Origin: an uncultured virus (IMG/VR IMGVR_UViG_3300012933_000135)
Lineage: Duplodnaviria > Heunggongvirae > Uroviricota > Caudoviricetes
DNA length: 50,204 bases
Direction: 5' to 3' (one strand)
IMG/VR virus record: IMGVR_UViG_3300012933_000135
How positions within the stretch are numbered: the first letter of the stretch is position 1; each line of letters begins with the position of its first letter. Positions 1,899 to 31,512 of the stretch are shown one piece after another. Position numbers and translations under genes: made by a program. A model generated the notes under the pieces. That model was not told the DNA's origin. It did no database searches and saw nothing but the letters and a program-made list of their open reading frames with translations.

Positions 1899-3050
1899 TT
1901 ATCTACTAAGGCCAGCGCCTTTCATTAGATCGTCAAACTCGTTGTTACCTGTAGTAGGTTGTCCACTTTGTTTAACATTTCCTGCTGCCGGAGCAGTTGA
2001 TTGTGTAGCTGCTGATTGTGTAGTTTGAACTGGCGCAGCTTGTTGTCCTTGCCCTGCTTCTTGCATAGCAGTTTTCATAGACTTAACTAACCATTCTTTT
2101 GGATCATAGTTAACTAATGTAGTTAATCCTGCAGTCTTATTCCATGCCCATTCCCAACTTGGATCAATGACATTCTGTACAAGCCCTGCAATAAATTTGT
2201 CAGCTTCATCACCTTTTAAGATTTGATTAGCAAATATAGTAGCTGCTACTTCAGATCCTAATACGGCCAGCACGACTGCTCTATCTCGACTTGCAAGTCC
2301 AAATGTTAAGAAGTCAGATACTGTTCCTGCAATAGCACCGGTTCCTTGACCAATAGCTCTACCTAGTCTGATACCTAGCCCAAGTGCAATTAGTTTAGTC
2401 CCGGTGATTTCTCTGTTTTCTCTAGTAAGGATATCAGCTTGTTCTTTAGTGATAGATCCTTTAGCAAGCTCGCTATTGACATATCCTTGTTCTTTCCAGT
2501 ATTCAACTCCTAAGTCTGCTGCACCTAAATACTTTACAGCGTTGACCAAGTTACCCGCAGCTTTCTGGAACATAGTAGTTGCTTGAACATCTCCAATCTT
2601 CTGACGAGGAATAACATCATTTGGTGCTCTTGACGGCTTACGAATCTTAGGTTCTTTAGGTGGAACTTCAACTGTAGGTGTTGACGGCTCAGTAGTAGCT
2701 CGAGGGGTAGATTGTTTAGTAGGTGCTGCTACAGCTGGCTTACCTGCTTTGATCTTAGGTTGTGCTCTCTTGGCAACTTCGTCTAAGATAACTTTAAGCT
2801 GTTCAGGAGTTAGGTTAGGATCTAGATCATTCTTTAATACTGCATATGGATTAGGATCAATAGCTTTACCTGCTGATCTTGCATTAATAACAGCATCTGC
2901 GTATTTCGTAGACGAAGTTTCAATGAAAGGTTCTAATCTAGTTAGCAACTGACTTTTACTTCTAATCGAGGTAATCCCTTTCCATAAATCAGAAGCAATA
3001 CCCATAATTCTTCCAGGGTTCGCTTCATTTACAATATCGTATATCTTCAT
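1899..3050 (-). CDS. Hypothetical protein, probable virion/internal head protein
   Basis: Likely start MKIYDIVNEA at 3050; late promoter AATAAATA upstream; Pro/Thr/Gln/Ala-rich linkers and one hydrophobic Gly-rich segment. Confidence 0.5.
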   Translation of the reverse strand: MKIYDIVNEANPGRIMGIASDLWKGITSIRSKSQLLTRLEPFIETSSTKYADAVINARSAGKAIDPNPYAVLKNDLDPNLTPEQLKVILDEVAKRAQPKIKAGKPAVAAPTKQSTPRATTEPSTPTVEVPPKEPKIRKPSRAPNDVIPRQKIGDVQATTMFQKAAGNLVNAVKYLGAADLGVEYWKEQGYVNSELAKGSITKEQADILTRENREITGTKLIALGLGIRLGRAIGQGTGAIAGTVSDFLTFGLASRDRAVVLAVLGSEVAATIFANQILKGDEADKFIAGLVQNVIDPSWEWAWNKTAGLTTLVNYDPKEWLVKSMKTAMQEAGQGQQAAPVQTTQSAATQSTAPAAGNVKQSGQPTTGNNEFDDLMKGAGLSR

Positions 3051-3074
3051 TTTGATAATCCTAATCACTTTCTA

Positions 3075-3082
3075 TATTTATT
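3075..3082 (-). promoter_or_regulatory. Late promoter AATAAATA
   Basis: TATTTATT on +, ~25 nt upstream of ATG 3050. Confidence 0.65.
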
Positions 3083-3083
3083 A

Positions 3084-3545
3084 AGATGAACTACGTTCAT
3101 CTGTGTTTATCGCTATCGCTCAAACACATATCTTTCTTTTTAACTGAAGCAATATTAGCTGCGAAGCAGTGAAAAGATATTATCTAGATTGATCAGTCAC
3201 ACTTAGCCCAGCTAAGGGCTAAGAAAAAATGGACATTATCTGAGTTGAACATGTCACATAACGTTAGAGCATTACAGTGGCGGTTGACCGGTACCACGAG
3301 CTCAGTCTTAATTACAACGGCGGTTACTACATAAACGTTATCTTACATAGCAGCGCGGGGTTTTTCTCCCCTCATTTAACCTATATTAGTATCTTCAAAC
3401 AATCAAACCGCAGGAATTAAGCGATCTTCGTCCGGTAAAGGATAGTGATTGAGTGCTTGTTTCAGCGACAAGACTTCGGATCCCTGCGACACTAGGTCCA
3501 GGTTTCTACTGTTCGGCACCCGATTTTAGCCGGTGCGAGCCCTAA
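3084..3545 (-). ncRNA. Candidate large structured non-coding RNA / structured cis element (~460 nt)
   Basis: The only long ORF-free stretch in the window. At least ten stems, e.g. CTTAGCCC/GGGCTAAG 3202-3223, CTTGT/ACAAG 3456-3472, GCACC/GGTGC 3516-3536, nested GAGC-GTGG-CGG stems 3267-3303, and an 11-bp stem at 3325-3352 that pairs fully only on the minus strand through 4 G-U wobbles. Also duplicated internal motifs. Confidence 0.65.
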
Positions 3546-3553
3546 CTGAATGA

Positions 3554-3979
3554 TTAGCCTTTTAATATGTGCGAGCCATGTACACGAACTTGAATATGTC
3601 CGTTATAATAGTCGTCACTTTCTAGTACTTTGCGGGAAAATTGTTCTCTGGCCTCGATGTAAGAGCATTGTGCCTTGGAGTTGCAGTAATATAAGATTTC
3701 TCTTTTGAAGTTTTCAGTGCCTAATGTGTCTATGTCTTTTTGAAGATTAGGACTACTTCCGTAGTACTCACGCCAGTCGCTGTCGACTTTGCTTCTAATC
3801 TTCTTTTTCTTCTTTGTGCCATTCTTTAAGGTTACAGTTTTAACTGATGTCTTTGAGAACTTGGCGAGTTTTTTGCCTATATATTTTCTGCCAGAGATGA
3901 CATTTGTTATCAAATATACGAATCCAACGCAATCTTCTGGGAGAGCGTCAACTATTGTATCTTGATAAGTCCATGACAT
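3554..3979 (-). CDS. Stand-alone GIY-YIG family nuclease-like protein
   Basis: GFVYLITN...RKYIGKK, YYGSS, FKREIL, conserved Glu (YIEAREQF) and YYN; Lys-rich insertion KNGTKKKKKIRSK. Confidence 0.75.
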   Translation of the reverse strand: MSWTYQDTIVDALPEDCVGFVYLITNVISGRKYIGKKLAKFSKTSVKTVTLKNGTKKKKKIRSKVDSDWREYYGSSPNLQKDIDTLGTENFKREILYYCNSKAQCSYIEAREQFSRKVLESDDYYNGHIQVRVHGSHILKG

Positions 3980-3982
3980 GCT

Positions 3983-4234
3983 TTAGTTAGCATTGTCATC
4001 CTTGGGTGCCTGTCGGTCTTGAGCCTTTTTTGCCTTAGTTTGTTCGTTTAATTCGTAACGCCAGTCCATTACAACTTTACGGCGTTCGCTGCATATTTTT
4101 CTAATAACGTTGAGCCAGTGACGTACATCCATGCCTGCTCTTCGAGTACCTTTGTTTAACCAACGTTGGTTAGCTTCGAAGTATTCTCGAAATGCCTGCA
4201 ATAGTTCTGCGTGTAGCTCTTCGTCTCTATGCAT
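3983..4234 (-). CDS. Small basic helical protein, Hc1/histone H1-like nucleic-acid-binding family
   Basis: KGTRRAGMDVRHWL..IRKICSERRK resembles the KGNKAAGxRxRxxLxxIxKxxxExRK pattern of Hc1-like proteins. Confidence 0.5.
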   Translation of the reverse strand: MHRDEELHAELLQAFREYFEANQRWLNKGTRRAGMDVRHWLNVIRKICSERRKVVMDWRYELNEQTKAKKAQDRQAPKDDNAN

Positions 4235-4425
4235 TAGTCCTTAGCCTGTTTAATAATTTCGTCTGTTGCTTTGCTAGCACGATCTTGTTCAATGCTAACA
4301 TGATGTAATCTATTAGCACATTGACGAATATCATCGGACAAGTTACCTCGTCCGATATTATCTTCGACTAGTTTAGCAATTTCATGCAGTGTAATAACTG
4401 CATCTACTAATGCTAAGTCTCTCAT
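4234..4425 (-). CDS. Hypothetical protein (63 aa)
   Basis: Start and stop overlap both neighbouring genes, implying translational coupling. Confidence 0.6.
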   Translation of the reverse strand: MRDLALVDAVITLHEIAKLVEDNIGRGNLSDDIRQCANRLHHVSIEQDRASKATDEIIKQAKD

Positions 4426-17064: not shown

Positions 17065-20000
17065 ATGGCTGATAATACAAATCCTACTAACAACGGTATT
17101 TCAAGTTTCCTACCTAGATTCTACAGAACAGATTCGAATAAGAAATTTCTGCAAGCAACGATTGAGCAACTTGTAAAACCAGGTAAAGTTAAAAAGATAA
17201 ATGGATACTTAGGTCGCAGAAATGCGAAGGCTAGTACAGGCGACGATACGTTTGTTGCAGGTGTTAATTCTACTCGAGAAAATTATCAGTTAGAGCCTAG
17301 CATAAACATTAATGATGAGTTAGGTAATACCACATTCTTTAAAGACTATCAAGATTACATTAATCAGTTAGGTGTCTTCGGCGCTGATGTATCTAATCAT
17401 GCTAGACTTAATAAACAAGAGTTTTACTCTTGGAATCCACACATCGACTGGGACAAATTTGTAAACTTTCAACAGTACTACTGGTTGCCGTACGGTCCTT
17501 CTGCGATTACAATTTACGGACAGCAACGTGCAATAACTAGCACTTACACTGTTAAGTGGGAATCAGCATTAGGCAGTAAAGAATTCTTGTTTACTCCTAA
17601 CGGCATTACTAGAAATCCCAGTTTAAAATTATACCGCGGGCAAGAATATCACTTTGAAATTGATAGCCCTGGCGAACCTTTCAGCATTAAAACTTCTAGA
17701 TCATCTGGAAATCTTGACAGATATTCTGCTCATCAATCAGTTGACCAGTTTGCAGTTGAGAATGGTACAATTACATTTACTGTTCCTGACGATGCTCCTG
17801 ACGTCTTATTTTATGTAAGCGAAAACGATATTAATTTAGGTGGCGTTTTTCAAATACTTGACATTAAAGAAAACACAGCAATTGATGTAAGCACAGATTT
17901 ACTAGGCAAGAAAACATATACATTACCTACTGGCTTGTCGTTAAGTAACGGCATGAAAGTAAGATTTGGTGGTAATGTTACTCCTGCAGAATACGCAACT
18001 GGCGACTATTATGTCGAAGGTGTTGGTACTACTATTAAGTTAGTAGCAGAATCTGATCTTGAATTAATCTATCCTTACACTGATGAGTTGCCTGTTTTAT
18101 TCGACGATACTACATTTGATAGTTTACCATTCGGTAGTGCAACAGCATTCGCTGGCAACTTAGACTATATTGTTATTAACCGAGCAAGCAAAGATAAGAA
18201 CCCGTGGAGCCGTTACAATCGTTGGTTCCATCAAGATGTTATTAATGCCAGCGCAGCGTACAATGGATCAATTGCCTCGTTAGATCAGACAGCACGAGCT
18301 GTTCGTCCTATTATCGAATTTGAGGCAGATTTAAAGTTATTTAATTTTGGTCTAGAAGCAAGCCACGATGTTGATTTAATCGATGACTACACTTCTGACA
18401 TCTTCTCTACCATTGAAGGTACTAGCGGATATAACGTTGACGGAGTTCAACTAGCTGAAGGTCAACGTATTTTGTTTATTGCAGATACTGATTCGTTAGT
18501 CAACAATAAAACATATCGTGTATCATTTATTACAGTTCAGAATAGTATTACTGGAACTCGAGATAGACAACTACATCTAGTCTTAGATGATGAGCCTATT
18601 TTAAACAGAGTTGCTGTAGTTAAGCAAGGTACAAAGTATCAAGGATCGATGTTCTGGTTCAACGGTACTAATTGGCAAATTGCTCAAAATAAATTAACAC
18701 TAAACCAACCACCGTTATTTGACATTGTTAACAACGACGGAGTTAGCTTTGGTGATTCTAGCACCTATGACGGTACAACATTTACAGGCACTACTTTATT
18801 CTCTTATAAAGTTGGAACTGGCACTGTAGATAGTAATTTAGGGTTCCCGCTTTCTTACAAAAATATTAACAACACTGGCGACATTGTTTTTAACTTCAAT
18901 ATTATCACTGATACTTTCCAGTATAAAGATGTTGAAAAAATTATCAATGTGTCTACAAGTGTAGGCTACTTGGTTAAGTCGTTAGGTAACAATCAAGTTG
19001 AGTACAAGAACGGTTGGGAAATTAGCACAATTGATTCTGAGTATCAGCCTGCGGTTAGAATTTATAAAAACTCTTCAAAAGTTAATACATTTGACTTAGA
19101 CATCTTTGATAACAAAACAGACTTAGCTGACTTACAAGTTAGAGTTTATGTTAACGGTATTCGCCTTGCTAGCTCTGATTGGATTTTAGTCGATGGTGCA
19201 GTTTATAAGAAACTTGTTCTTTCTACAGACATTGCATTAACTGATGTTCTTACAATTAAAGCATTTGCTAAACAATCAATTAACAGTAATGGATTTTATG
19301 AAATTCCAGTTAACCTACAGAATAATCCGTTAAACAATACAATGGGAGATTTTACACTTGGTGAAGTAATCGATCATGTAAACTCTATTGTTGATAATTC
19401 TGCTGCATTTACTGGCACGTTCCCAGGAAGCAACAACCTACGAGATTTAGGTAACTTATCTGCTCGTGGTACTAAGTTTGTACAGCACTCAGGACCTTTA
19501 AGTCTTGCCTTGTATCACATTACTTCTCCAGACAACAACATTATCAAAGCAATTGAAACTGCTCGTGACAACTACGGCCAATTCAAACGCAATTTTATTG
19601 CAGTATCTCAATCATTAGGCATTGACACTGCAACTAAAACTTTTGTAGATTTAATTTTACAAGAGATGAATAAAGATAAGCCTAGCAAATCAGCTTACTA
19701 CTTTAGTGATATGATTCCATACGGTGCTGTTAAAGTTAATACCTTTACTGTTATTGACTATAGAATTTTAACATATCCGCTATCTGAAACATTTGACTTA
19801 AACTACTTGTCAAACAAAGCAGTTGGTGTATATTTGACTCATAACAATGAGACTACACAATTACTATACGGACGTGATTATGAGTTTGACAGTCAAGGCT
19901 TTGTAAGAATTCTTGCTGCAATGGCTAATGATGATTCTATCACCGTTTATGAATATGACAATACTGATGGTTGTTTTGTAGCACCAACTCCTACTAAGTT

Positions 20001-23000
20001 AGGTATTTGGCCAAAGTTTGAACCTAAGATTTATATCGATACTAGTTTAATTACTCCTCGTAAAATGATCCAAGGCCATGACGGTAGTCAAGTGTTGGCT
20101 TATAGTGATATTGGCGAACCAAACGATTATAGAGACGAATTGTTGCTAGAATTAGAAAAGAGAATTTATAACAACATTAAGGTTACATATGATCCAAGCA
20201 TTTTTGATATGCTTGATATTATTCCAGGATACAACAGAACAACTGATTATTCTCTTGCAGAATTTAATCAAGTACTAGCTCCTAACTTCTATAACTGGAC
20301 TACATTTATTGACCGTGACTTTACTAAGCCAATGAGCTTTGATAAATCAAATTCGTTAACATTTAACTATCGTGGTCAGCAAGCACCTGATGGAAGAGAA
20401 GTTCCTGGTTACTGGAGAGGCGTATATCGCTGGATGCTCGACACTGATAGACCAAATCTTTGCCCATGGGAAATGCTAGGCTATAGTGAAGAGCCAGCAT
20501 GGTGGGTCGAAGTGTATGGTCCAGCACCATACACTTGTGACAACATTGTTATGTGGAACGACTTGAGCGAAGGTATTACTAGAGAACCAGGCAAGCCTAT
20601 TCAACGTAATCCAAAGTTTGTTCGTCCGTTCCTTACTACCGCAATTCCAGTTGATGAATCTGGAAACTTAAGAAGTCCAATGACTTCAAACTTTGCATCA
20701 GGATTAATTACTGGTACAGTATCTAACGACTTTGTATTTGGTGATGTAAGCCCTATCGAAGCAGCTTGGAGACGTAGTAGTTACTATGCGTTTAGCGTAC
20801 TAACAACAGCCCTATTATTAAAGCCAGCTAAGACATTTGGCGTATTGTTTGACCGTTCACGTATTGTTAGAAATCTAACAGGTCAGCTAATCTATAAAGA
20901 TACAGGATTGAGAGTACGCCCTGAAGATATTGCATTGCCAAATATCTATGCTAGCGAAACTAGAACACAGACCGCCGGCGTTATTAACTATCTAGTTGAT
21001 TACATTTTAGGCGACAACTTAAAATCTTACGATCAGTATGTATATGACTTAGGTAATATCAAGTTTAATCTAAGCTATCGTGTCAGCGGATTTACTAGCA
21101 AAGAAAAATTTAACTTACTTTTAGATAGCAAGAGTCCAACTGCGGTAGGCGGCGTATTTGTACCTCAAGAAAACTACAATGTAGTTTTGAACAGCTCTAG
21201 TCCAGTTAAGAAGATTACCTATAGTGGTGTTATTATCACTAAGCTATCAGACGGATTTGAAGTTAAGGGTTACAGTAAGACACAACCATACTTTAAATAT
21301 TATGCATGGACTCAATCAGGAGCAACTATCAACGTAGGCGGCATTTCTGAAAGCTACGTCTTGTGGAGTGCTAATCAACGATATTCAGTTGGCAAAGTTG
21401 TTCGCTACAGCAATTTGTTTTTCAGAACAACAATAACACATACTTCAACAGAAACATTTAACGCTGAAGCATTCCAACGTTTGCCCGCACTACCAGTTTC
21501 TGGCGGTCAAGATGCAACGTTTAGAAAGCGTTGGGATCGTACTGAAGCGATTGTGGTGCCATTTGGTACTAAGTTTAGAACAATTCAAGAAGTTGTTGAC
21601 TTCCTAACTGGCTACGGTGAATGGTTGAAAGACCAAGGATTTGTATTTGACGACTTTAATAACTCGTTAGCACAAATTACTAATTGGGAAACTAGTGCGA
21701 AAGAATTCTTATTCTGGACAACACAAAACTGGTCTTCAGGTGAAGACAAGTGGGAAGAGTGGTTAGCTGAAACCCCAGTTGTATACGGATCGATTGTACG
21801 TTATAACGGTGACTACTACCGCGCTACTCGTAACTCACCGGCATCTACAATATTTGAAGAAACCGATTTTGTTAAGCTAGAAGGTCTAAGCACAGTCGGT
21901 AGTTCAGTAATTAGTTTAAGCCCTTCTGCAAATAAGATTACTATCAAGACTGAATATACAGTTGTTGATGACATCTTAAATCAGTTCAACGGTTACGAAA
22001 TTTTTAAAGTTGACGGTACTAAACTTGAGCCGGCATTTGTCGATTCTTTTAGAGATGTGAATACAGTAGCGTATACTCCAAAGACTACTGATGGTATCTA
22101 CGGCGCAACTTTCTTCTTAGTACAGCGAGAGCAAGTTGTTATTCTAGATAACACTACGTTGTTCAACGACACAATTTATAACCCAGAAAGCGGCTATCGC
22201 CAAGAGCGTATTAAAACATCTAGCTATGTTAGTACTGATTGGTACGGTGGATTTGATGTCCCTGGATTTATCTTTGACCAAGCTAAGATTCAAGAATGGA
22301 ATAGTTGGACAGATTACGCCTTAGGCGACATTGTTAAGTACAAAGAATTCTATTACAGTGCAAACTATGCAATCACTGGAACTGCTGAGTTTGTAGCAAG
22401 CGACTGGGTAAAGTTAGACAGCAAGCCATCGGCTCGATTAATCCCTAACTGGAGCTATAAAGCAAGCCAGTTTGAGGATTTCTATAGTTTAGACAGTGGC
22501 AATTTTGATATTGGCCAACAAAAAGTTGCCCAGCATTTAATTGGCTACCAGAAGCGTCAATACTTGAGTAATATTATCAAAGATGATGTTAGTGAGTTCA
22601 AATTCTATCAAGGCATGATCATTGAAAAAGGTACACAGAACAGTCTAAACAAATTGTTTGACGTACTAAGTGCAGACGGCGAAGAAAGTTTAAAGTTTTT
22701 TGAAGAATGGGCAGTTTGTGTAGGACAGTACGGCGCAACAGCAGCATTTGAAGAAATTGAATTTATATTAGACGAATCTAAATTTACAAATAATCCTCAA
22801 GGATTTGAATTAGTGCAGTCGGTTGATTCAACATCACTTGACTTCATCATTCGTCAGACACCTAACGATGTATATCTAAAACCGCTCGGTTACAATAGTA
22901 ACCCTTGGCCAATGACATCTAAGAATACTTCTATTTTGCGCACAGCAGGGTATGTTCGCAATGAAGATGTAAAGTTATTACTAGACAACATTGATGATAT

Positions 23001-26000
23001 TGTTAACGAATCTCCTATTGATTTTACAGTAGGAGACTACGTTTGGTGCGCATTTGAAGGCCGTGAGTGGAACATTTATCGTTACTCTGTAGCGCCATTT
23101 AAAGTTACTAATTTAACGTACAGTAACTCTACTATTACTGTTACTACAGACGAACAAGTAAGATTGTCTGTTGGATCGTTTGTTAGTATTGTTAGAGCAA
23201 CAGGTGCTACTGGTTTTTATAAGATTAAAACAGTTAGCTTAAATTCGTTTACTGTTTCTGCTACACTAACAACACCGCCAGCAAATCCGTTCACTGAACA
23301 ATCAACAGTTGAAGTATTCTTCTTAGAAACTCAGCGTGTAAAAACTAATATAGATGATGCTAATGATGTGATTCCAACTAGACCTAAAAATGGTGAAAAG
23401 ATTTGGTCAGACAACTTAACAGATGATCAGTGGGCAGTGTGGGAATACAACACTGTTTACACAGGTTCTGAATTCTCTAATTCGTTCCCAGCTGATGACA
23501 TTGCGTACGGACGTTCAGTTGCAATGAATACTGGCGCTACTTTCTCAATGGTATCTACAAATAATGCAGTAGTTACATACGACAAAGTGCCTAATGCAAC
23601 AGTATGGCTACAGCGTCAAACTATATTTGCTCCGTTCATCTGTCAAACAGAAGATCTGCAAGCCCAACAATTTGGTTATTTTGCAGAAGCAATGGCAATT
23701 GCAGCATCTAAGTGGGTAGCAATTGGGTCTCCTAATGCAAGCGCAGCTTCGACTCTAGCTAACTCTTATACTATCGGTGAAATTGCAGTAACTGATATTA
23801 CTGGAACATCATCTGGATTTGTTAAACAGGGTGTAGTAACCTTGTATACAAAAGATTCTTCAAACGTATTGATTATTGATAGTACAATTGTTAGCCCTAA
23901 CTCTGCAAGTAACGAACAATTTGGTTCGTCGCTAGTGTTTGGTAGTAACGAATTATTCGTAGCAGCAGTTGGCTATAATAGTGGCGAAGGATGTGTTTAC
24001 AGATTTGTATTCAACGACGGATGGAAATTTGCTTCAATTATTTCTGAGAGCTTACAAGCAAATGCACAATTTGGATATGCTATTGCACTTTCTGAAGAAG
24101 GTACATTAGTAATTTCTGCACCTGGTGCAAATTCTGTATTTGTATATGCAAAGAATGAAGACGGAGAGTACGAACTAGCTACTTCACCGTTAACTGCTAC
24201 TGACAACAGATTTGGTGAAAGTGTTGCAGTTACAACTGATGGAAACTTTATTGCAGTTGGTTCTAAATTATTTGACGGTGTTAACATTGATCAAGGACAA
24301 GTTGTAGTATACGACAGAACTTTTGCAGTTCATCAACAAATTACAAGTCCTAAGCCTGAGATTGCAGAATTCTTTGGTAGCAAAGTATTGTTCTCAAACA
24401 ATGATAATACATTAGTAATTTTTAGTGCTAACGGTGACAGTTATAAAGAGACAACTTTTAATGTAGATGGTATTACTACATTTGATAATAATTCAATGCG
24501 AGTTATTGAACCGCTAGTTGACAGCGGCCGAGTCGATGTATTTGATCGTTACAACACTAAGTGGGTATACAGTGAAACATTAGGCCTTGATACAGATCCT
24601 ATCACCGGAGAATTTAGTGTACGAAACGGCGATGCATACGGTGCGAGCATTGCAGTTGGCCTTAATACAATTCTTGTAGGTTCGCCTTACACTACTGATG
24701 CTGGCTTAAATTCTGGAAAAGTATTTGGATACACTAAGCCAGTTGATGCATTAACATGGAAGGTTATTAGAACAGCGGTTGCAAAACCTGATATTACTAA
24801 AATTAAGAAAGCGTTCTTATACAACAAGACAACAAATAACTTAGTTACATACTTAGATGTACTTGATCCTGTTCAAGGTAAGATTCCAGGTATTGCCGAC
24901 CAAGAGATTAAATTTAAAACATTCTTTGACCCAGCTGTATATTCAGTAGGCACTGACGAAGTGATTGTTGATAACGGTCAAGCATGGACTACTGAAAAAG
25001 TTGGAATGTTATGGTGGGATCAACGCCGTGCTAAGTTCATTGATAGTTACGGCGGCGACGTTGTATATCGAAACACAACATGGAACACAATGTTTGAAAC
25101 TGCTAGCATTGATATCTATGAGTGGATCGAAACTACTTACTTGCCAGAAGCATGGAATGCGTTAGCTGATACCGAAGCAGGGTTAACATCAGGCATTAGC
25201 GGAACTTCTTTATACGGCAATAATGTGTATAGTGTTAAGAAACGCTATGATACAGTAAGCCAGACATTTAAGAATACCTACTTCTATTGGGTTAAGAATA
25301 AGAAAATTATTCCAAATGTTGCATCTCGTCAAATGAGCGCAAGTGACGTTTCTAACCTAATTGCAAATCCTAAAGGTCAAGGATACAAGTATATTGCTCT
25401 AACAGGCAGTAACAGTTTTAGTTTAGTTAACGTTAAGCCGTTGTTAGAAAATGCAGATGTTGTATTGGCAATACAATACTGGACTGTTGATAACACTCAA
25501 CAGAACATTCACAGCGAGTGGAGATTAGTCAGCGAAGACATTAATAGTGATCTTCCAAAGTCGATTGAATTAAAATGGTTTGACAGCTTGTGTGGAAAAG
25601 ACGAGCAAAACCGTGTAATTCCAGATTTAGATTTACCTCCTAAACTTCGATATGGTGCGCAATTCCGCCCACGTCAAAGTATGTTTGTTAACAGATTTGA
25701 AGCACTAAAACAATTTGTTGAACGTGCTAACTCGACATTGCTGTCTAATCAGATTGTAAATTCTAGAGACATAACTGATCTAAATTCTTTTGATCTTGAA
25801 CCAAGTATTGTTACCGGTCTATACGATACAGTAGTTGATACTGATGCAGAATTAAGATTTGCTAGTGTAAGTACAGTTAAGTTAGCCACTGTTACACCAG
25901 TAGTTACAAACGGTTATATTACAGGTGTTGAAATTGTAGAACCTGGTAACGGCTATTTAACTGCACCGTATATCACAGTTCACGGCAACGGTGAAGGTGC

Positions 26001-29000
26001 AGTAGTAAGGGCAGTAATTAATGCTCGTGGACAAATCACAGGCATTGATATTATTAATAAAGGCTATGGTTACGATGACTCAACAGTCTTCTTAGTACGT
26101 AACTACTCAGTATTAGTGCATAGCGACGAGCAAGCACTAGGACGCTGGAGCATCTATGCATATGATCCAATCAATAAAGTTTGGAGCAGAACACAGTCTC
26201 AGTCATATGACACTCGTAAGTACTGGACATATGTTGATTGGTATGCACCTGGACTATCACAGTTTACAGTAGTTGATCATGCGGTTGATACAATTAGCGA
26301 CATTGTTAACATTTCAGTAAACATTGGTCAACTAGTTAAAGTTCGAACAAGTGGATCAGCCGGGTGGTCATTGCTTAAAAAGTATGCTAACTCTGATTCA
26401 GTTGACTGGACACAAAGTTATAATGTAGTTGGTAGTCAGAATGGTACAATTCAATTAAGCGATTCATTGTACAAGTTTAGCAACACTACATTAGGATATG
26501 ACGGCGCATTGTTTGACGGTGATGCGTTTGATAATACTGCGGTGACTGAGTTACGAATTATTCTAAATAGTTTAAAGACTAAAATCTTTATCGACACATT
26601 GAAGCAAACTTACTTAGACTTGTTCTTTGCATGTCTACGTTATGCATTCACTGAACAAAATTACATTGACTGGGCATTTAAAACTAGCTTTGTAAGAGTT
26701 CAACATAACGTTGGCGCTCTACGTCAGAAAGTTACCTACAACAATGATAACTTAGTTGATTTTGAATCTTACATTCAAGAAGTTAAACCTTACAGAACTA
26801 AGATTAGAGAATATGTCAGCGAATATACTGCTATTGATAACAGCCGTCTTTCAGTAACTGACTTTGATGTACAGCCTATTCGAGAAGCAGGTCAGACTAC
26901 AACTATGACTTTGTTAAATGTTGACGGCGACATTCAATCGACACATCCTGAAATTTTACAATACCCTTGGAAACATTGGTTGGACAATGTAGGATTTGAA
27001 ATTACTGAAATTGTAATTACTAACAACGGCTCAGGCTACTTAACACCTCCTACAATCAGATTTGAAGGTGGATATGGAACTGGTGCAACTGCAAAGGCAT
27101 TTATTTCAAGTGGCCGCTTAAACAGAATTTTATTACTAACTCCAGGTACTAACTTCTTAGCTGCACCAAAGATTATTGTTGACGGCGGACTAGCAGTTGA
27201 CGGCGTTCCGGCAACAGCAATTGCAAAAATTGGCAATAGTGTAGTACGTTCAAACTTAATCAAAATGAAATTTGATCGAGTAAGCAAGACATACTTTATT
27301 ACTGAACTAGAAGAAACTGCAACCTTTGCAGGAACGGGAAGTCAGCTACAGTTTGTATTGAAGTGGGCACCGGATGTGAGAATTGGCACTAGCGCCGTAA
27401 CTATTAACGGCGTTGACGGATTGCGAGATAGTTATGTGCTAGCTACTGCTAAATCAACCGCTAAAGGCTACACTTCGTATTACGGTACTATTACTTTTAA
27501 AACTGCTCCTGCTAAAGGAACTTCAATTGTAGTGTCTTATATTAAAGACTGGGCACTATTAAACGCAGCTGATCGTATCAACTTCTACTACGACCCAACA
27601 ACTGGACAATTAGGTAAAGATTTGTCTCAGTTGATGACAGGTGTAGATTACGGCGGAACTATTATTACTGGTTTAGATTTTAACGTATCTGCTGGTTGGG
27701 ATAGTTTACCGTACTTCTCAGATGCATGGGATTCTATTGATCCTACATTTGATGACTACATCATCAAAGCTGGACTTAACTCTAACGAGTTTACATTACC
27801 ATACATTCCAGGTGTAGGTGAAGAGATTAACGTTTATCATAACGGCATTCGACTTGATGATTTAGCGTTTGGTACTCCTGAGCAAACTAATTTAAATGCT
27901 ACAATGCAAACTTTTATCGGTGACGGAATTAACAGCACTGTAGTATTACCGTCGATTGCAGTAACTCGTTCAGCAGATGGTACACAATCATCTGCTAGTA
28001 CTGTGTTAACATTGTCATCTGTCGCCGGTATTCAAGTTGGAAGTTTATTACTAGCTCCTGATGTTGTTCCGGCAAATACTACAGTTACAGCAGTTACTGG
28101 CAACCTAGTATCAATTACATCAACTGGTGAAATTTCAGGAACAACATTAACAATGCCTGGACTTACAGATAATTATGTTGGAATGAGAGTTACAGGTAAC
28201 ACTGTTTTACCTAATACATATATCGTTAGCGTAACTCCGGGAGTATCGTCAACGATTGAAACACAAATAGTTGAAGTATCTGGGACAGCAATTAATGCTG
28301 TTACATTCTTAGGTCAAGTAGTTGCAACTTCCGCAGCTGGCGACACCGCAGCTGATATTGTTATTAAAATTGCAGCAGATAACTCTGCGATTATGGCTGC
28401 ATGGAATGCATCTAACCCAACACAGGAAATTGAAAATATTGAAATTGATTTTGAGAATGGTCCAATTCAAGGAGCAGGCTCGACAACATTGCGTATTGTA
28501 TATCGTCCTTCTGAAGGAGATGTTCCTGTGCTAAGTACCTCAATCAGCAACGGTATTACGTTTGCTGAAAGTGTAGCACTAACTGAAGGTGTGTCAGGTG
28601 CCGTATCAACTGCACAACTAAGCATCAGCCAAACAGTTGGTTCAAGCAGCCTAACATTCTTACCGATTGTTGAAATTTCTAACCCGCTACAAGGCGAAGT
28701 TATTAACGGATACGAGTTATTCTTTGGAGATACTATTCAGTATACTCTAGGAGTACAGCCTGTTGATTCTACTAAAATAGCGGTTAGTTCTGCGTTTAAT
28801 GTCACAGTAGGTGATGCAGTATATTCTCCTAATAAGCTGCTAACTACTACTGCAATATTAACAGGCACTACAGTAACAGCAGTTGACTTAGTTGCAAACA
28901 CTGTAACATTATCTGCTCCTATCAGCAGTGCTATTGCTGATAGTGTAAAATTATCGTTTGGATATAACAAACTATTCTTCCGTAAGAGTACTAGCGATGG

Positions 29001-31512
29001 AGCAATTAAGCCGTTAGACACTGATTACGATACTGCTATTAGTGGCGGAGATTTAGCTTATTCATCAGCTACAGGCCTTGCTGCTGATGATATTATCTTA
29101 GACGGTGACGATTTTGTTACTGCTACATCTAGTGATGCGCCAGAAGAAGTAGTTCCAGGACAAATCACTGATGCAGTTGCAATCAAAGTATTCTATCGTC
29201 CAACGAGTGGATCTGCTAATATCAAAGTTGATAATCATATTGCTGACGGTCAAACTGCTGAATTTAGTTTTTCACAAGCATTGAACAGCTCTCAAGCGTT
29301 GTTGGTTAAAGTCGATGGCGATGTATTAAGCGCAACTGACTATGTGTTGAATTATAATCTACGTACTATTACGCTAAACGACACTCCGCTAGTTGACGAA
29401 TATGTTTCTATCTTTAGTTTCGGATTTAACGGACAAAATGTTTTAGACATTGATTACTTTGTAGGTAACAGTGCTACTGCTGAATTTATCACTAAAGCAC
29501 CTTGGATTGAATTAGTATCAGCAGCAGTTTATATCAACGGTGTTGCAGTAAACTATGAATTATTTAGAACTGATAGTTCGTATGATCAGTCTAACGTAAT
29601 AGGAATTAGATTTGGAACTGCACCGTTAACTACTGACGTTATTAACTATGTGATAGTTGCCGGTGACGATCATGCGTTCTCAACTATTACAACTGAGACA
29701 CTAGTACCATTAGCTAATAAGACAACATTTACTCTAACAAATCAAGTTGGAACTTCTACCCCACTTGAATCTAGTATGATTGTTAGAATTGACCAAGCAA
29801 TTATTCCAGCGGCAAACAACTCGTATTTCAACATTGTACGTAATAAACTTAATTATACAGTTGATCAAGTAAAAATGTTGCCATATGCTCTTGATATTAG
29901 TAACGTAGCAGTCTACGCAGACAATGTATTATTAAACACTGGTCTTGACTATAGTGTTGATCTGTCTGGAATTACAGTTACAATTAACAAGCAAATCTAC
30001 TCAACTTACAAAGGAAAAGTATTAACCGTTAGCATCAACACTGACCAAGCGTATACCTGTACAGGTAGTGAAATTATTTTTGCTCAAGCTCCGGCAGTAG
30101 GACAGTTGGTAGAAGTAACATCGGCATTTAAACATGACGTGTTAGATATTCAACGCACTAATTCTGCAATAGTTGCAAACTTAAATTATACCGTTGACAC
30201 TCCGGAGTTCTATGCATACACTGGACTAACAAGCGGATTAATTCCGTTAGATCGTCCTGTTATTAACTCTTCATATGTTTGGGTTACTAAAAATACACAG
30301 CTACTAACTCCTAGCATTGATTACAAACTAACTAAAAACAAGCAAAGTATCTTGTTAGACATTGAGCCAGTTGAAGGCGATAAATTTGAAATTATCACGT
30401 TTAGCAGCAATGTTCAGTCAGATACAATTAGCTACATGCAGTTTAAAGATATGCTAAACAGAACGCACTTTAAGCGTTTGAGTTTAAACAAACAAACTAC
30501 TCTAGCTAGAAAACTTCGTTACAATGATACTGATATTTTATTAGCTGATGCAAGTAATTTTGATGAGCCAAACCCGTCTCGTAACTTACCAGGCGTAATT
30601 GAAATCAACGGCGAGCGCATTGAGTACTTTGTAAAGAACGGCAATATGCTAAGTCAGTTGCGTCGTGGTACATTAGGTACAGGCACTCCTCGAGTTAACC
30701 CGCTAGGCACATCTGTACAAGATATTGGTCCATCAGAAACTATTCCTTATAAGGATACTATTAGCATTACACAAGTTGCTTCTACAGGTTCAAACTTAAT
30801 CGGTACTGATTTTACTCCGTTAAAATCTAGCACTCCTATATCAGTTGATGCAGATTTTGTAACAAGTATTCCTGCTAATTACGGTCAAGCTGATAACGTT
30901 GAAGTATTTGTTGGCGGATATGCAATTGATCAAGTATGGGCTACTGGAATTGCATACACAACCGGTACAATAGTTAATGTTGGTAGTTACTTATATCGTT
31001 GTGTTGCCGACCATACATCGACTGTATTCTCAGCAGATTCTGCTAACTGGATGTTCTTTGTTGGAAATATTAGACTGAAGAAACATGCATTTAAAGTGCA
31101 TAATGTAAATCAGCATCCTGATAGTCCCGAAGGTGATATTCAAATGGATCCTGACTTTACAGTTGACGGTGTGTCTAACAGTATCCGATTAACTAATGCA
31201 CTTGACGCAGGCACCACAGTTACTATTGTTAAGCGAGTTGGAAAAATGTGGACTGATATTACATTTAATCCTGTTGCAGTAACATTTGATACCGAATCGT
31301 TGATACTAGATAGCGGTCAAACTACAGTTGACATCAAGTATTCAAATACGTTACAAGACGGCAATAAACAAGTTGCAGAATTCTTAAAAGCAACACCGGG
31401 AATATGGCATTCTACTGTAAATCGTCCTGTTGTAGGTGACGGAATTGCAGACTTTGACGCAGAAGATTTAACATTTGATACGGTAAATACTACATACGAC
31501 AAGGATCTATGA
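17065..31512 (+). CDS. Giant (4815 aa) virion/baseplate structural protein, gp7/VrlC-like position, multi-domain
   Basis: Follows the gp6-like gene; FLPRFYRTD..KKFL N-terminus; IQEVKPYRTK motif; CBM5/12-like W-x4-Y-x2-G-x2-V-x-Y repeats, FG-GAP-like repeats, GxGY-x2-P repeats, Ig-like V-x-x-NG repeats. Confidence 0.7.
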   Translation: MADNTNPTNNGISSFLPRFYRTDSNKKFLQATIEQLVKPGKVKKINGYLGRRNAKASTGDDTFVAGVNSTRENYQLEPSININDELGNTTFFKDYQDYINQLGVFGADVSNHARLNKQEFYSWNPHIDWDKFVNFQQYYWLPYGPSAITIYGQQRAITSTYTVKWESALGSKEFLFTPNGITRNPSLKLYRGQEYHFEIDSPGEPFSIKTSRSSGNLDRYSAHQSVDQFAVENGTITFTVPDDAPDVLFYVSENDINLGGVFQILDIKENTAIDVSTDLLGKKTYTLPTGLSLSNGMKVRFGGNVTPAEYATGDYYVEGVGTTIKLVAESDLELIYPYTDELPVLFDDTTFDSLPFGSATAFAGNLDYIVINRASKDKNPWSRYNRWFHQDVINASAAYNGSIASLDQTARAVRPIIEFEADLKLFNFGLEASHDVDLIDDYTSDIFSTIEGTSGYNVDGVQLAEGQRILFIADTDSLVNNKTYRVSFITVQNSITGTRDRQLHLVLDDEPILNRVAVVKQGTKYQGSMFWFNGTNWQIAQNKLTLNQPPLFDIVNNDGVSFGDSSTYDGTTFTGTTLFSYKVGTGTVDSNLGFPLSYKNINNTGDIVFNFNIITDTFQYKDVEKIINVSTSVGYLVKSLGNNQVEYKNGWEISTIDSEYQPAVRIYKNSSKVNTFDLDIFDNKTDLADLQVRVYVNGIRLASSDWILVDGAVYKKLVLSTDIALTDVLTIKAFAKQSINSNGFYEIPVNLQNNPLNNTMGDFTLGEVIDHVNSIVDNSAAFTGTFPGSNNLRDLGNLSARGTKFVQHSGPLSLALYHITSPDNNIIKAIETARDNYGQFKRNFIAVSQSLGIDTATKTFVDLILQEMNKDKPSKSAYYFSDMIPYGAVKVNTFTVIDYRILTYPLSETFDLNYLSNKAVGVYLTHNNETTQLLYGRDYEFDSQGFVRILAAMANDDSITVYEYDNTDGCFVAPTPTKLGIWPKFEPKIYIDTSLITPRKMIQGHDGSQVLAYSDIGEPNDYRDELLLELEKRIYNNIKVTYDPSIFDMLDIIPGYNRTTDYSLAEFNQVLAPNFYNWTTFIDRDFTKPMSFDKSNSLTFNYRGQQAPDGREVPGYWRGVYRWMLDTDRPNLCPWEMLGYSEEPAWWVEVYGPAPYTCDNIVMWNDLSEGITREPGKPIQRNPKFVRPFLTTAIPVDESGNLRSPMTSNFASGLITGTVSNDFVFGDVSPIEAAWRRSSYYAFSVLTTALLLKPAKTFGVLFDRSRIVRNLTGQLIYKDTGLRVRPEDIALPNIYASETRTQTAGVINYLVDYILGDNLKSYDQYVYDLGNIKFNLSYRVSGFTSKEKFNLLLDSKSPTAVGGVFVPQENYNVVLNSSSPVKKITYSGVIITKLSDGFEVKGYSKTQPYFKYYAWTQSGATINVGGISESYVLWSANQRYSVGKVVRYSNLFFRTTITHTSTETFNAEAFQRLPALPVSGGQDATFRKRWDRTEAIVVPFGTKFRTIQEVVDFLTGYGEWLKDQGFVFDDFNNSLAQITNWETSAKEFLFWTTQNWSSGEDKWEEWLAETPVVYGSIVRYNGDYYRATRNSPASTIFEETDFVKLEGLSTVGSSVISLSPSANKITIKTEYTVVDDILNQFNGYEIFKVDGTKLEPAFVDSFRDVNTVAYTPKTTDGIYGATFFLVQREQVVILDNTTLFNDTIYNPESGYRQERIKTSSYVSTDWYGGFDVPGFIFDQAKIQEWNSWTDYALGDIVKYKEFYYSANYAITGTAEFVASDWVKLDSKPSARLIPNWSYKASQFEDFYSLDSGNFDIGQQKVAQHLIGYQKRQYLSNIIKDDVSEFKFYQGMIIEKGTQNSLNKLFDVLSADGEESLKFFEEWAVCVGQYGATAAFEEIEFILDESKFTNNPQGFELVQSVDSTSLDFIIRQTPNDVYLKPLGYNSNPWPMTSKNTSILRTAGYVRNEDVKLLLDNIDDIVNESPIDFTVGDYVWCAFEGREWNIYRYSVAPFKVTNLTYSNSTITVTTDEQVRLSVGSFVSIVRATGATGFYKIKTVSLNSFTVSATLTTPPANPFTEQSTVEVFFLETQRVKTNIDDANDVIPTRPKNGEKIWSDNLTDDQWAVWEYNTVYTGSEFSNSFPADDIAYGRSVAMNTGATFSMVSTNNAVVTYDKVPNATVWLQRQTIFAPFICQTEDLQAQQFGYFAEAMAIAASKWVAIGSPNASAASTLANSYTIGEIAVTDITGTSSGFVKQGVVTLYTKDSSNVLIIDSTIVSPNSASNEQFGSSLVFGSNELFVAAVGYNSGEGCVYRFVFNDGWKFASIISESLQANAQFGYAIALSEEGTLVISAPGANSVFVYAKNEDGEYELATSPLTATDNRFGESVAVTTDGNFIAVGSKLFDGVNIDQGQVVVYDRTFAVHQQITSPKPEIAEFFGSKVLFSNNDNTLVIFSANGDSYKETTFNVDGITTFDNNSMRVIEPLVDSGRVDVFDRYNTKWVYSETLGLDTDPITGEFSVRNGDAYGASIAVGLNTILVGSPYTTDAGLNSGKVFGYTKPVDALTWKVIRTAVAKPDITKIKKAFLYNKTTNNLVTYLDVLDPVQGKIPGIADQEIKFKTFFDPAVYSVGTDEVIVDNGQAWTTEKVGMLWWDQRRAKFIDSYGGDVVYRNTTWNTMFETASIDIYEWIETTYLPEAWNALADTEAGLTSGISGTSLYGNNVYSVKKRYDTVSQTFKNTYFYWVKNKKIIPNVASRQMSASDVSNLIANPKGQGYKYIALTGSNSFSLVNVKPLLENADVVLAIQYWTVDNTQQNIHSEWRLVSEDINSDLPKSIELKWFDSLCGKDEQNRVIPDLDLPPKLRYGAQFRPRQSMFVNRFEALKQFVERANSTLLSNQIVNSRDITDLNSFDLEPSIVTGLYDTVVDTDAELRFASVSTVKLATVTPVVTNGYITGVEIVEPGNGYLTAPYITVHGNGEGAVVRAVINARGQITGIDIINKGYGYDDSTVFLVRNYSVLVHSDEQALGRWSIYAYDPINKVWSRTQSQSYDTRKYWTYVDWYAPGLSQFTVVDHAVDTISDIVNISVNIGQLVKVRTSGSAGWSLLKKYANSDSVDWTQSYNVVGSQNGTIQLSDSLYKFSNTTLGYDGALFDGDAFDNTAVTELRIILNSLKTKIFIDTLKQTYLDLFFACLRYAFTEQNYIDWAFKTSFVRVQHNVGALRQKVTYNNDNLVDFESYIQEVKPYRTKIREYVSEYTAIDNSRLSVTDFDVQPIREAGQTTTMTLLNVDGDIQSTHPEILQYPWKHWLDNVGFEITEIVITNNGSGYLTPPTIRFEGGYGTGATAKAFISSGRLNRILLLTPGTNFLAAPKIIVDGGLAVDGVPATAIAKIGNSVVRSNLIKMKFDRVSKTYFITELEETATFAGTGSQLQFVLKWAPDVRIGTSAVTINGVDGLRDSYVLATAKSTAKGYTSYYGTITFKTAPAKGTSIVVSYIKDWALLNAADRINFYYDPTTGQLGKDLSQLMTGVDYGGTIITGLDFNVSAGWDSLPYFSDAWDSIDPTFDDYIIKAGLNSNEFTLPYIPGVGEEINVYHNGIRLDDLAFGTPEQTNLNATMQTFIGDGINSTVVLPSIAVTRSADGTQSSASTVLTLSSVAGIQVGSLLLAPDVVPANTTVTAVTGNLVSITSTGEISGTTLTMPGLTDNYVGMRVTGNTVLPNTYIVSVTPGVSSTIETQIVEVSGTAINAVTFLGQVVATSAAGDTAADIVIKIAADNSAIMAAWNASNPTQEIENIEIDFENGPIQGAGSTTLRIVYRPSEGDVPVLSTSISNGITFAESVALTEGVSGAVSTAQLSISQTVGSSSLTFLPIVEISNPLQGEVINGYELFFGDTIQYTLGVQPVDSTKIAVSSAFNVTVGDAVYSPNKLLTTTAILTGTTVTAVDLVANTVTLSAPISSAIADSVKLSFGYNKLFFRKSTSDGAIKPLDTDYDTAISGGDLAYSSATGLAADDIILDGDDFVTATSSDAPEEVVPGQITDAVAIKVFYRPTSGSANIKVDNHIADGQTAEFSFSQALNSSQALLVKVDGDVLSATDYVLNYNLRTITLNDTPLVDEYVSIFSFGFNGQNVLDIDYFVGNSATAEFITKAPWIELVSAAVYINGVAVNYELFRTDSSYDQSNVIGIRFGTAPLTTDVINYVIVAGDDHAFSTITTETLVPLANKTTFTLTNQVGTSTPLESSMIVRIDQAIIPAANNSYFNIVRNKLNYTVDQVKMLPYALDISNVAVYADNVLLNTGLDYSVDLSGITVTINKQIYSTYKGKVLTVSINTDQAYTCTGSEIIFAQAPAVGQLVEVTSAFKHDVLDIQRTNSAIVANLNYTVDTPEFYAYTGLTSGLIPLDRPVINSSYVWVTKNTQLLTPSIDYKLTKNKQSILLDIEPVEGDKFEIITFSSNVQSDTISYMQFKDMLNRTHFKRLSLNKQTTLARKLRYNDTDILLADASNFDEPNPSRNLPGVIEINGERIEYFVKNGNMLSQLRRGTLGTGTPRVNPLGTSVQDIGPSETIPYKDTISITQVASTGSNLIGTDFTPLKSSTPISVDADFVTSIPANYGQADNVEVFVGGYAIDQVWATGIAYTTGTIVNVGSYLYRCVADHTSTVFSADSANWMFFVGNIRLKKHAFKVHNVNQHPDSPEGDIQMDPDFTVDGVSNSIRLTNALDAGTTVTIVKRVGKMWTDITFNPVAVTFDTESLILDSGQTTVDIKYSNTLQDGNKQVAEFLKATPGIWHSTVNRPVVGDGIADFDAEDLTFDTVNTTYDKDL

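Follow-up and report, generated by a model that had tools for sequence, protein, structure and literature searches.

A doubly pseudoknotted domain of a large structured RNA in T4-like freshwater phages extends the Polynucleobacter-1 motif

The uncultured virus contig IMGVR_UViG_3300012933_000135 (Caudoviricetes; 50,204 nucleotides, all of which were analysed and are referred to below as the window) derives from a T4-like myovirus, carrying baseplate proteins, a gp46/47-like SbcCD pair and a late sigma factor. Positions 3232-3371, for which an original prediction made from the sequence alone had proposed a folded RNA on the minus strand, sit in a 485-nucleotide gap between a SegE-type nuclease gene (3554-3979) and an open reading frame (ORF) of 389 amino acids (1899-3068) that matches no known family. 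We find that the minus strand of this region encodes the central domain, with two pseudoknots, of a structured non-coding RNA of ~460 nucleotides in large T4-like freshwater phages, and that the Polynucleobacter-1 motif (Rfam RF01718) is only the 5' third of that RNA, because conservation continues to ~3083. That a real structured RNA extends RF01718 at this locus is, in our assessment, almost beyond doubt. The principal features of the locus are as follows.

3083..3545, minus strand: whole conserved structured RNA, ~460 nucleotides, with ends placed where conservation stops
3397..3541, minus strand: 5' domain, Polynucleobacter-1 (RF01718), scoring 97.1 bits (gathering score 37) over model positions 1-141 of 141
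3554..3979, minus strand: gene for a SegE-type GIY-YIG nuclease of 141 amino acids (PF19835, E 3.8e-33, residues 3-129)

Extent of the RNA and its relation to RF01718

Homologous viral loci were collected with a pattern derived from the core of RF01718, i.e. from the 5' domain, which returned at least 120 viral contigs. Among the matches listed, a scope that applies to all counts over these loci, the central core was found at the same offset after the 5' domain in 95 of 120, corresponding to 87 unique sequences. A second, protein-first sample comprised the best 80 homologues of the SegE-type protein (72-90% identity), 72 of them with at least 400 nucleotides of downstream sequence. Base-pair counts were made on MAFFT alignments, the main count resting on 61 sequences (alignment A3), with 500 shuffles and slid alignments as controls. 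A conservation profile over 65 unique loci runs from ~3545, just past the stop codon of the SegE-type gene, to ~3083, and therefore extends ~150 nucleotides further 3' of the region initially flagged. Consistent limits were obtained from the protein-first sample, in which 44 loci match a full-length profile (nhmmer) from model position 20 or earlier through to its end. The RNA is composed of the 5' domain, an exchangeable central domain (the 3232-3371 region) and a 3' domain common to all relatives.

RF01718 is the sole Rfam match in the window and lies directly 5' of 3232-3371. The CAAUCA/UGAUUG junction that had been described upstream (3451-3400) corresponds to the three-way junction of this family, and is thus an already catalogued motif. 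The flagged region itself falls outside the model, which ends at 3397, and matches no Rfam family at E<=10 beyond chance-level snoRNA and miRNA hits. Likewise, ribozyme families and other large Rfam RNAs gave no match in 2900-3800 at E<=10, and their models gave none in the relatives at E<=0.1 or 0.01; ARAGORN found no tRNA or tmRNA genes in the window, and a blastn search of 50,697 deposited phage records returned no match to 3100-3600. Polynucleobacter-1 has stood as an orphan Rfam motif since the survey of Weinberg et al. 2010 (PMC2864571), the supplement of which gives an alignment of 16 sequences of ~135-172 nucleotides; in the literature searched, the motif appears by name in that survey alone. 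The phage RNA shares with Polynucleobacter-1 the same 5' domain, with the full model matched at 97 bits, and the same freshwater habitat. It differs in continuing for ~310 nucleotides beyond the 141-position model, and in possessing two pseudoknots, a pair of twin elements and 3' hairpins that are absent from Rfam.

A covarying central domain with two pseudoknots

All features that the original prediction had claimed for the flagged region were found to be present in the sequence, and most of them gained comparative support. Across the 61 homologues, 87.7% of cells pair, compared with 72.6% in shuffled alignments (none of 500 as high) and 31-49% in slid alignments, and changes on both sides occur at 36 of 43 pairs. 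Five helices and two pseudoknots covary between 3371 and 3258, comprising the following elements.

3357..3371, minus strand: H1 hairpin, GGGG-AGAAAAA-CCCC in the window; 83.1% paired, 5 of 6 pairs compensatory
3354-3343 with 3334-3323, minus strand: H2, a long G-U-rich hairpin; 88.6% paired, 12 of 12 pairs compensatory; its loop 3341-3335 forms the first pseudoknot (PK1)
3258..3264, minus strand: 3' strand of PK1, ACGUUAU, pairing with the H2 loop AUAACGU (3341-3335); 93.9% paired, 7 of 7 pairs changed on both sides
GUUGU 3318-3314 with UCAAC 3287-3283, minus strand: H3, the second pseudoknot; 99.3% paired, 3 of 5 pairs compensatory
GAGC 3303-3300 with GCUC 3270-3267, minus strand: H4, enclosing H5; 99.2% paired, 4 of 4 pairs compensatory
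GUGG 3297-3294 with CCAC 3280-3277, minus strand: H5; 100% paired, 1 of 4 pairs compensatory

The hairpin at the centre of the original prediction, UGCUAUGUAAG/UUUAUGUAGUA (3352-3342 x 3335-3325) with 11 pairs including four G-U wobbles, is the minimum free energy (MFE) structure of the region and covaries at every one of the 12 pairs of H2; when folded individually, 72 of 72 homologues form H2 as a hairpin of 9-16 base pairs with a mean of 3.0 G-U pairs. The proposed contact of its loop, AUAACGU(U), with the distal strand (A)ACGUUAU was borne out as a pseudoknot, and an exact loop-to-distal complement of at least five nucleotides is present in 67 of 72 sequences. A further pseudoknot, H3, had been missed. 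Its 3' strand lies within the H5 loop and reads UCAAC in the window and ACAAC in most homologues, and the pair types found across homologues include GUCGU/ACGAC, GUCAU/AUGAC and GUCAG/CUGAC. In both PK1 and H3, loop bases pair with a distal single strand and do so with compensation.

The remaining predicted pairings fared unevenly. From the nested stem set, GAGC/GCUC and GUGG/CCAC were retained as H4 and H5, whereas CGG/CCG is invariant, hence uninformative, and clashes with H3 at C3283, a position at which GUUGU x UCAAC is the better supported pairing. A second proposed pseudoknot, between CUCAG (3244-3240) and CUGAG (3305-3301), is complementary in the window only (63.3% paired across 72 sequences, with no compensatory pair) and is not supported; CUGAG is taken by the covarying H4 stem. 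The strand order of the resulting fold is H2-5', PK1-5', H2-3', H3-5', H4-5', H5-5', H3-3', H5-3', H4-3' and PK1-3', so that two facing pseudoknots surround the invariant GGUACCGG (3295-3288) of the H5 loop. Together with ACCGCC and AAGAC, this segment makes up the invariant unpaired bases of the central domain. Two kinds of length variation were also observed, namely an insertion of 37-60 nucleotides, built from UAUAGUCAAC-like units in tandem, that separates H5 from the H4 3' strand (L002, L025, L029 and L102; columns 189-237 of alignment A2), and an extra hairpin of ~30 nucleotides, GAUUGUUUGC...GCAAGCAAU, in the linker from the 5' domain to H1 (L051, L073 and L109; columns 21-56).

Several signals support the minus strand as the one that folds. 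The Rfam model matches on that strand, H1 in many homologues is a 6-base-pair stem with a GUGA or GCGA cap, i.e. a GNRA loop in sense orientation, and 92.7% of cells are paired in the sense reading compared with 87.0% in the antisense (154 G-U cells). Folding energies were less telling. For the 140-nucleotide region, the minus strand gave a z-score of -1.43, with 18 of 200 shuffles folding as well, and the plus strand a z-score of 0.01 (96 of 200); for the whole RNA the values were -1.86 (3 of 100) and -1.83 (5 of 100), respectively. The expectation that the minus strand would fold better than its shuffles was thus partly upheld, in that it does so somewhat, but the effect is weak and leaves the matter open on thermodynamics alone. 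Given such weak single-sequence thermodynamics, the case for the RNA rests on comparison between sequences, where the anticipated compensatory changes were found, for example throughout H2 and PK1. Taken together, the covarying helices and pseudoknots, the strand signals and the lack of a minus-strand terminator-like site support the earlier conclusion that a tertiary-folded RNA, and not a terminator, is encoded on this strand.

Twin elements and modular relatives

Downstream of the central core, the conserved RNA continues through two short modules, each carrying one of a pair of twin motifs, and a set of 3' hairpins.

3232..3257, minus strand: module 1, with GUGAC 3257-3253, hairpin GACAU/AUGUC 3255-3251 x 3236-3232, and twin motif 1, ACUCAGAUAA+U, at 3245-3235
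3202..3222, minus strand: H8 hairpin UUAGCCCU...GGGCUAAG; 89.8% paired, mostly invariant, one compensatory pair
3179..3200, minus strand: module 2, with GUGAC 3200-3196 and twin motif 2, AUCUAGAUAA+U, at 3189-3179
3084..3128, minus strand: 3' hairpins H9 and H10, common to all RNA types
GUGUUU 3127-3122 with AAACAC 3108-3103, minus strand: outer stem of H9, covarying by eye, around an inner tandem-GA element GAGC-GAUA-GCGA
3102-3084, minus strand: H10, AGAUGAAC-GUA-GUUCAUCU, a 6-pair stem with five compensatory pairs

The CUCAG loop of the original prediction forms part of twin motif 1. The hairpin of module 1 was ruled out as a fixed-register stem (51.5% paired in one register), and the motif lies in a clean loop in only 14 of 62 MFE folds. 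As a separate observation, the complement of H10 (window 3084-3102, plus strand) scores as a terminator-like hairpin, which could end the transcript of a convergent gene.

Both twin motifs are preceded by GUGAC, and the two elements are 56 nucleotides apart. Their first three pyrimidines differ in a fixed manner (CUC in motif 1, UCU in motif 2), while at four further positions the bases differ from one RNA to another, yet the two twins of an RNA agree there in 131 of 134 unique sequences; 11 haplotypes occur in all. The identity is reproduced in the independent protein-first sample (59 of 60). At the four positions the twins share mutual information as high as the entropy of the columns themselves (0.95, 0.63, 0.94 and 1.34 bits); the next-best columns come to 0.44-0.64, and no other column matches the twin positions in this respect. 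A tree of 54 RNAs, made with the twin columns left out, places at least 18 and at least 17 changes of haplotype, and in independent pairs on this tree the twins change in the same way in 5 of 5 and 3 of 3 cases. A 353-kb phage possesses two diverged full-length paralogues of the RNA (L273, G004:C1:105092-105237; L274, 248435-248571) with different twin haplotypes, each internally identical; the constraint on the twins therefore acts within each molecule. Only one of these paralogues has a SegE-type gene upstream, the other following a DUF7788 protein.

A range of ordinary explanations for the twin identity was tried and rejected. Watson-Crick pairing between the twins leaves the variable positions unpaired in all three antiparallel registers set out by hand. 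As a third strand within 900 nucleotides on either side, only the invariant UGUUUGAA (3401-3394) fits, and by wobble alone; no third strand was found in the bacterial loci described below. The twins do not behave as a genome-wide signal (3 matches in the window against 1.3 expected) or as CsrA-type GGA sites (GGA is missing from at least 75 of 134 sequences), nor as anticodon-loop mimics (motif 2 has C at the place of U33) or small ORFs (the spacing varies). A rolling-circle template was also considered; the unit length is 47-76 nucleotides with no preference for multiples of three. No reverse transcriptase turned up in Pfam scans of 20 ORFs of the window or 33 ORFs of two stretches of bacterial genomic island. 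The twin pattern is accordingly not ordinary base pairing, and points to a bivalent partner, a symmetric contact or a copying mechanism.

The 3' domain also occurs without the rest of the phage-type RNA. In phage loci L307, L308 and L373, the twins, H9 with its GAGC-loop-GCGA inner part, and H10 stand behind unrelated upstream parts; L359 carries the same RNA type after an inserted ORF, and 14 further loci of the protein-first sample match only from the CCGCC strand onward. Six variant loci that were scanned (these four together with L310 and L329) gave no Rfam hit. Among bacterial genomes, the first 5'-domain pattern produced chance hits only among the matches listed and a longer version produced none, while a central-core pattern returned 32 hits, six of them true and all on short contigs of metagenome-assembled genomes (MAGs); one of the six (L250) has phage gene order. 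Through a MAG contig we reached the genus Polynucleobacter, where RF01718 scores above its cut-off in 13 of 121 genomes and where the RefSeq example of the 2010 paper (NC_009379.1/2130772-2130906) was recovered as G042:C1:2130772-2130906. Eleven bacterial-type loci encode RNAs of ~500 nucleotides with RF01718, another central domain that lacks GGUACCGG, and the same twin elements, which read ACUC-NNNN-AAAG and AUCU-NNNN-AAAG and are concordant where both could be read, with single-base exceptions in L301 and L302. The bacterial RNA lies between a divergent DUF6641 gene (11 of 11 loci) and a tyrosine recombinase of 188 amino acids (at least 9 of 11), and none of the 11 loci has the nuclease gene. 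On the two chromosomes examined (L304, 9138-11826; L305, 7950-10915) it is part of an island with an AAA ATPase gene, near tRNA-Phe and YcaO. None of these island proteins occurs in the phage loci, and no paper naming DUF6641 was found in the literature searched. Within this family of large, modular, mobile-element RNAs, 3232-3371 is the central domain of the phage type.

Gene context and possible function

The RNA lies at the 3' end of a transcription unit, usually immediately after a SegE-type gene, and the gene beyond it is most often convergent. A SegE homologue (70-80% identity) is directly upstream in 88 of 120 loci, or 74 of 87 unique loci; at the 13 loci without one, the RNA adjoins other ORFs that lack nuclease domains. 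In the protein-first sample, the RNA comes next at 67 of 72 homologues (from the best 80) and a protein gene at the other five, and the window and a complete 322-kb phage each have one SegE homologue, adjoining the RNA. The 141-amino-acid protein has no recognisable DNA-binding domain, the Pfam match spanning residues 3-129. Two variations on this arrangement were seen in single loci or pairs of loci. In L053, which lacks SegE, two paralogous ORFs in inverted orientation (1-729 and 1285-1821) flank the RNA, and in L359 and L382 an extra ORF of ~90 amino acids with a CxxC...CxxC pattern lies between the SegE gene and a type-C RNA. Elsewhere in the window, amid baseplate and tail-fibre genes, one ORF of 4815 amino acids (17065-31512, plus strand) is very long even for a T4-like phage.

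As an explanation of the whole, we favour, with a fair measure of confidence, a stand-alone folded RNA with a pseudoknotted core that positions the 3' domain toward a bivalent partner. The RNA would be made within, or processed from, the upstream transcript and would then act as a stand-alone folded RNA. PK1, joining the H2 loop to the strand 3' of H4, and H3, joining the strand 5' of H4 to the H5 loop, would lock H2 and H4-H5 together, such that a compact core forms around the invariant GGUACCGG. This core may in turn orient the 3' domain and present two identical, sequence-specific elements to the bivalent partner, a role that either a dimeric protein or a nucleic-acid site present in two copies could fill. 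The stand-alone character of the RNA is the part of this proposal that we regard as probable; presentation of the twins to a bivalent partner is a more tentative suggestion, on which we remain somewhat doubtful. The nuclease gene is most likely that of a homing endonuclease residing beside, and perhaps targeting, the conserved RNA gene, as T4 SegB does in its tRNA cluster.

A number of observations weigh against this explanation or narrow the grounds for it. Folding energies are only weakly better than those of shuffled sequences and, for the whole RNA, approximately equal on the two strands, and the register of the module 1 hairpin varies. Collection with a 5'-domain pattern could inflate the apparent linkage of the domains through ascertainment bias, which the protein-first sample partly offsets. 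The four sequencing runs compared consist of assembled contigs without strand or ends: two, labelled RNA-Seq, are probably DNA, and the two true metatranscriptome runs contain only short contigs of relatives, which cover parts of 3271-3560 and the SegE gene and do not establish transcription. In the bacterial loci L300 and L295 the RNA precedes a same-strand ORF, and a cis-regulatory reading persists there; the tight adjacency of SegE and RNA, together with the presence of just one SegE copy in each genome, is also compatible with a functional partnership of nuclease and RNA. For the twins, no covarying complement was found within 900 nucleotides on either side, and cognate sites are not in excess in the complete 322-kb phage genome, in which cognate and non-cognate 9-mers are equally rare.

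Two alternatives would tie the RNA to a neighbouring message. Polynucleobacter-1 was entered in the table of the 2010 survey as cis-regulatory 'y' and switch '?' (Weinberg et al. 2010, PMC2864571), and a leader or riboswitch of the downstream gene would agree with the same-strand ORF directly after the RNA in bacterial L300 and in 13 of 50 unique phage loci. However, the longest downstream ORF is convergent in the other 37 of these 50, which speaks against a leader; in phage loci the RNA is not consistently upstream of, and co-oriented with, a gene, and none of the 120 loci conserves the 389-amino-acid protein encoded downstream in the window. Furthermore, where a same-strand gene does follow, a TATAAATA-like motif is visible by eye between H10 and that gene, as is UUAAUAAAUAUAG in the window (3070-3083, minus strand), directly after H10 and before the 389-amino-acid ORF; both resemble the T4 late promoter, TATAAATA. 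On balance, a leader function is quite unlikely. The converse idea, that the RNA is simply a structured 3' untranslated tail stabilising or terminating the upstream message, draws on its constant position behind a co-oriented gene with hardly any gap, and on U-runs that some sequences, including the window, have behind the module 1 hairpin. This is the least credible of the alternatives, since 460 nucleotides with two covarying pseudoknots, invariant loops and twins go far beyond the needs of stabilisation, the U-run is not conserved, and no minus-strand terminator-like site was found in a scan of 2950-4300.

The other alternatives concern the nuclease, the twins and the core. The RNA might be a guide or scaffold for the adjacent GIY-YIG nuclease, with the twins supplying the sequence recognition for homing. 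In keeping with this, the RNA comes after 67 of 72 SegE homologues, including cases in which its upstream domains differ, the gene is present at 74 of 87 RNA loci and in a single copy beside the RNA, the PF19835 match leaves no room in the protein for a binding domain, and the twins carry few freely varying, identity-paired bases, as specificity determinants would. Against it stand the 13 of 87 phage loci, one of the two paralogues in a single phage and all 11 bacterial loci without the gene, the absence of nuclease domains from the upstream proteins of SegE-less loci, the five of 72 SegE genes without RNA, a variable part of only four bases, and the lack of enrichment of the twin complement in the complete 322-kb phage genome or in the window. 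We view a guide role as unlikely. The twins, and perhaps more of the 3' domain, might instead act as DNA, as recognition or cleavage sites for the homing endonuclease or another DNA-binding protein, in which case their identity would stem from protein recognition and not from a function of the RNA. They do covary by identity in place of complementarity, and an RNA partner was looked for and none found; a related precedent is T4 SegB, which recognises an 11-bp motif of RNA genes (PMC2330249). Twin identity nevertheless persists in bacterial copies and in nuclease-less phage copies, the flanking H8, H9 and H10 covary as RNA, and the motif does not recur in the rest of the window, which makes this option about as improbable as the leader. 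A catalytic role for the central domain, in self-cleavage or another reaction, would suit a compact double-pseudoknot fold with invariant unpaired GGUACCGG, ACCGCC and AAGAC. It appears very unlikely given that no ribozyme family matches even at E<=10, that relatives keeping the 3' domain have the central domain swapped for unrelated sequence, and that a conserved processing site is not evident.

Comparison with known systems places the proposed stand-alone RNA among several partial precedents. Several large RNAs, among them GOLLD, ROOL, HEARO and OLE, are several hundred nucleotides long, contain many helices and pseudoknots, have links to phages or mobile elements, and have roles that are obscure or only recently found. 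The present RNA is alike in size and ornateness; it matches none of their Rfam models and shares no motif with them, and we know of no counterpart of the twin identical elements among RNAs of this type. Two hairpins with the same loop, acting on each other or on a dimeric protein, are found in the guanidine-II (mini-ykkC) riboswitch and in the two anticodon-like arms of the E. coli thrS operator. The likeness lies in two similar modules with the same loop sequence in one RNA, with the difference that here up to four loop positions vary between RNAs yet match within an RNA. For the gene pair, the closest precedent is T4 SegB, a free-standing GIY-YIG gene in a tRNA cluster that recognises a conserved 11-bp tRNA-gene motif and drives the co-inheritance of itself and neighbouring RNA genes (PMC2330249). 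Both cases comprise a free-standing GIY-YIG gene beside a stable-RNA gene in a T4-type phage. Here, however, the neighbour is one large RNA in place of tRNAs, the nuclease has only 141 amino acids, and the comparison is one of gene arrangement. Finally, TwoAYGGAY, another Rfam motif of the 2010 survey, has been described as belonging to a far larger structure that adds further hairpins and a 3' pseudoknot (bioRxiv 10.64898/2026.09.22.753630); according to that description it is a different RNA of Pseudomonadota chromosomes, with no sequence relation to the one reported here.

These results turn an orphan Rfam entry of 141 nucleotides into the front end of a modular RNA of ~460-500 nucleotides, widespread in large freshwater phages (at least 120 viral contigs) and with relatives in Polynucleobacter genomic islands. 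For structural biologists, the well-supported double-pseudoknot core represents a new large natural RNA with rich covariation, and the two elements, whose bases evolve freely yet have stayed identical across at least 17 joint changes, pose a puzzle of their own. One speculative answer, to which we assign little probability, is that the twins are programmable 'address' loops of a new mobile-element RNA module, bringing together two copies of one nucleic-acid site. If so, the twins of the phage RNA might, for instance, tag the two half-sites of a DNA target on behalf of the domain-less GIY-YIG nuclease, or those in Polynucleobacter islands might bridge partner sites for the small tyrosine recombinase that lies downstream of the RNA, with the exchangeable central domain serving as a structural clamp. 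The tight link of the RNA to a GIY-YIG nuclease without a recognisable DNA-binding domain makes the question of RNA-assisted homing directly testable.

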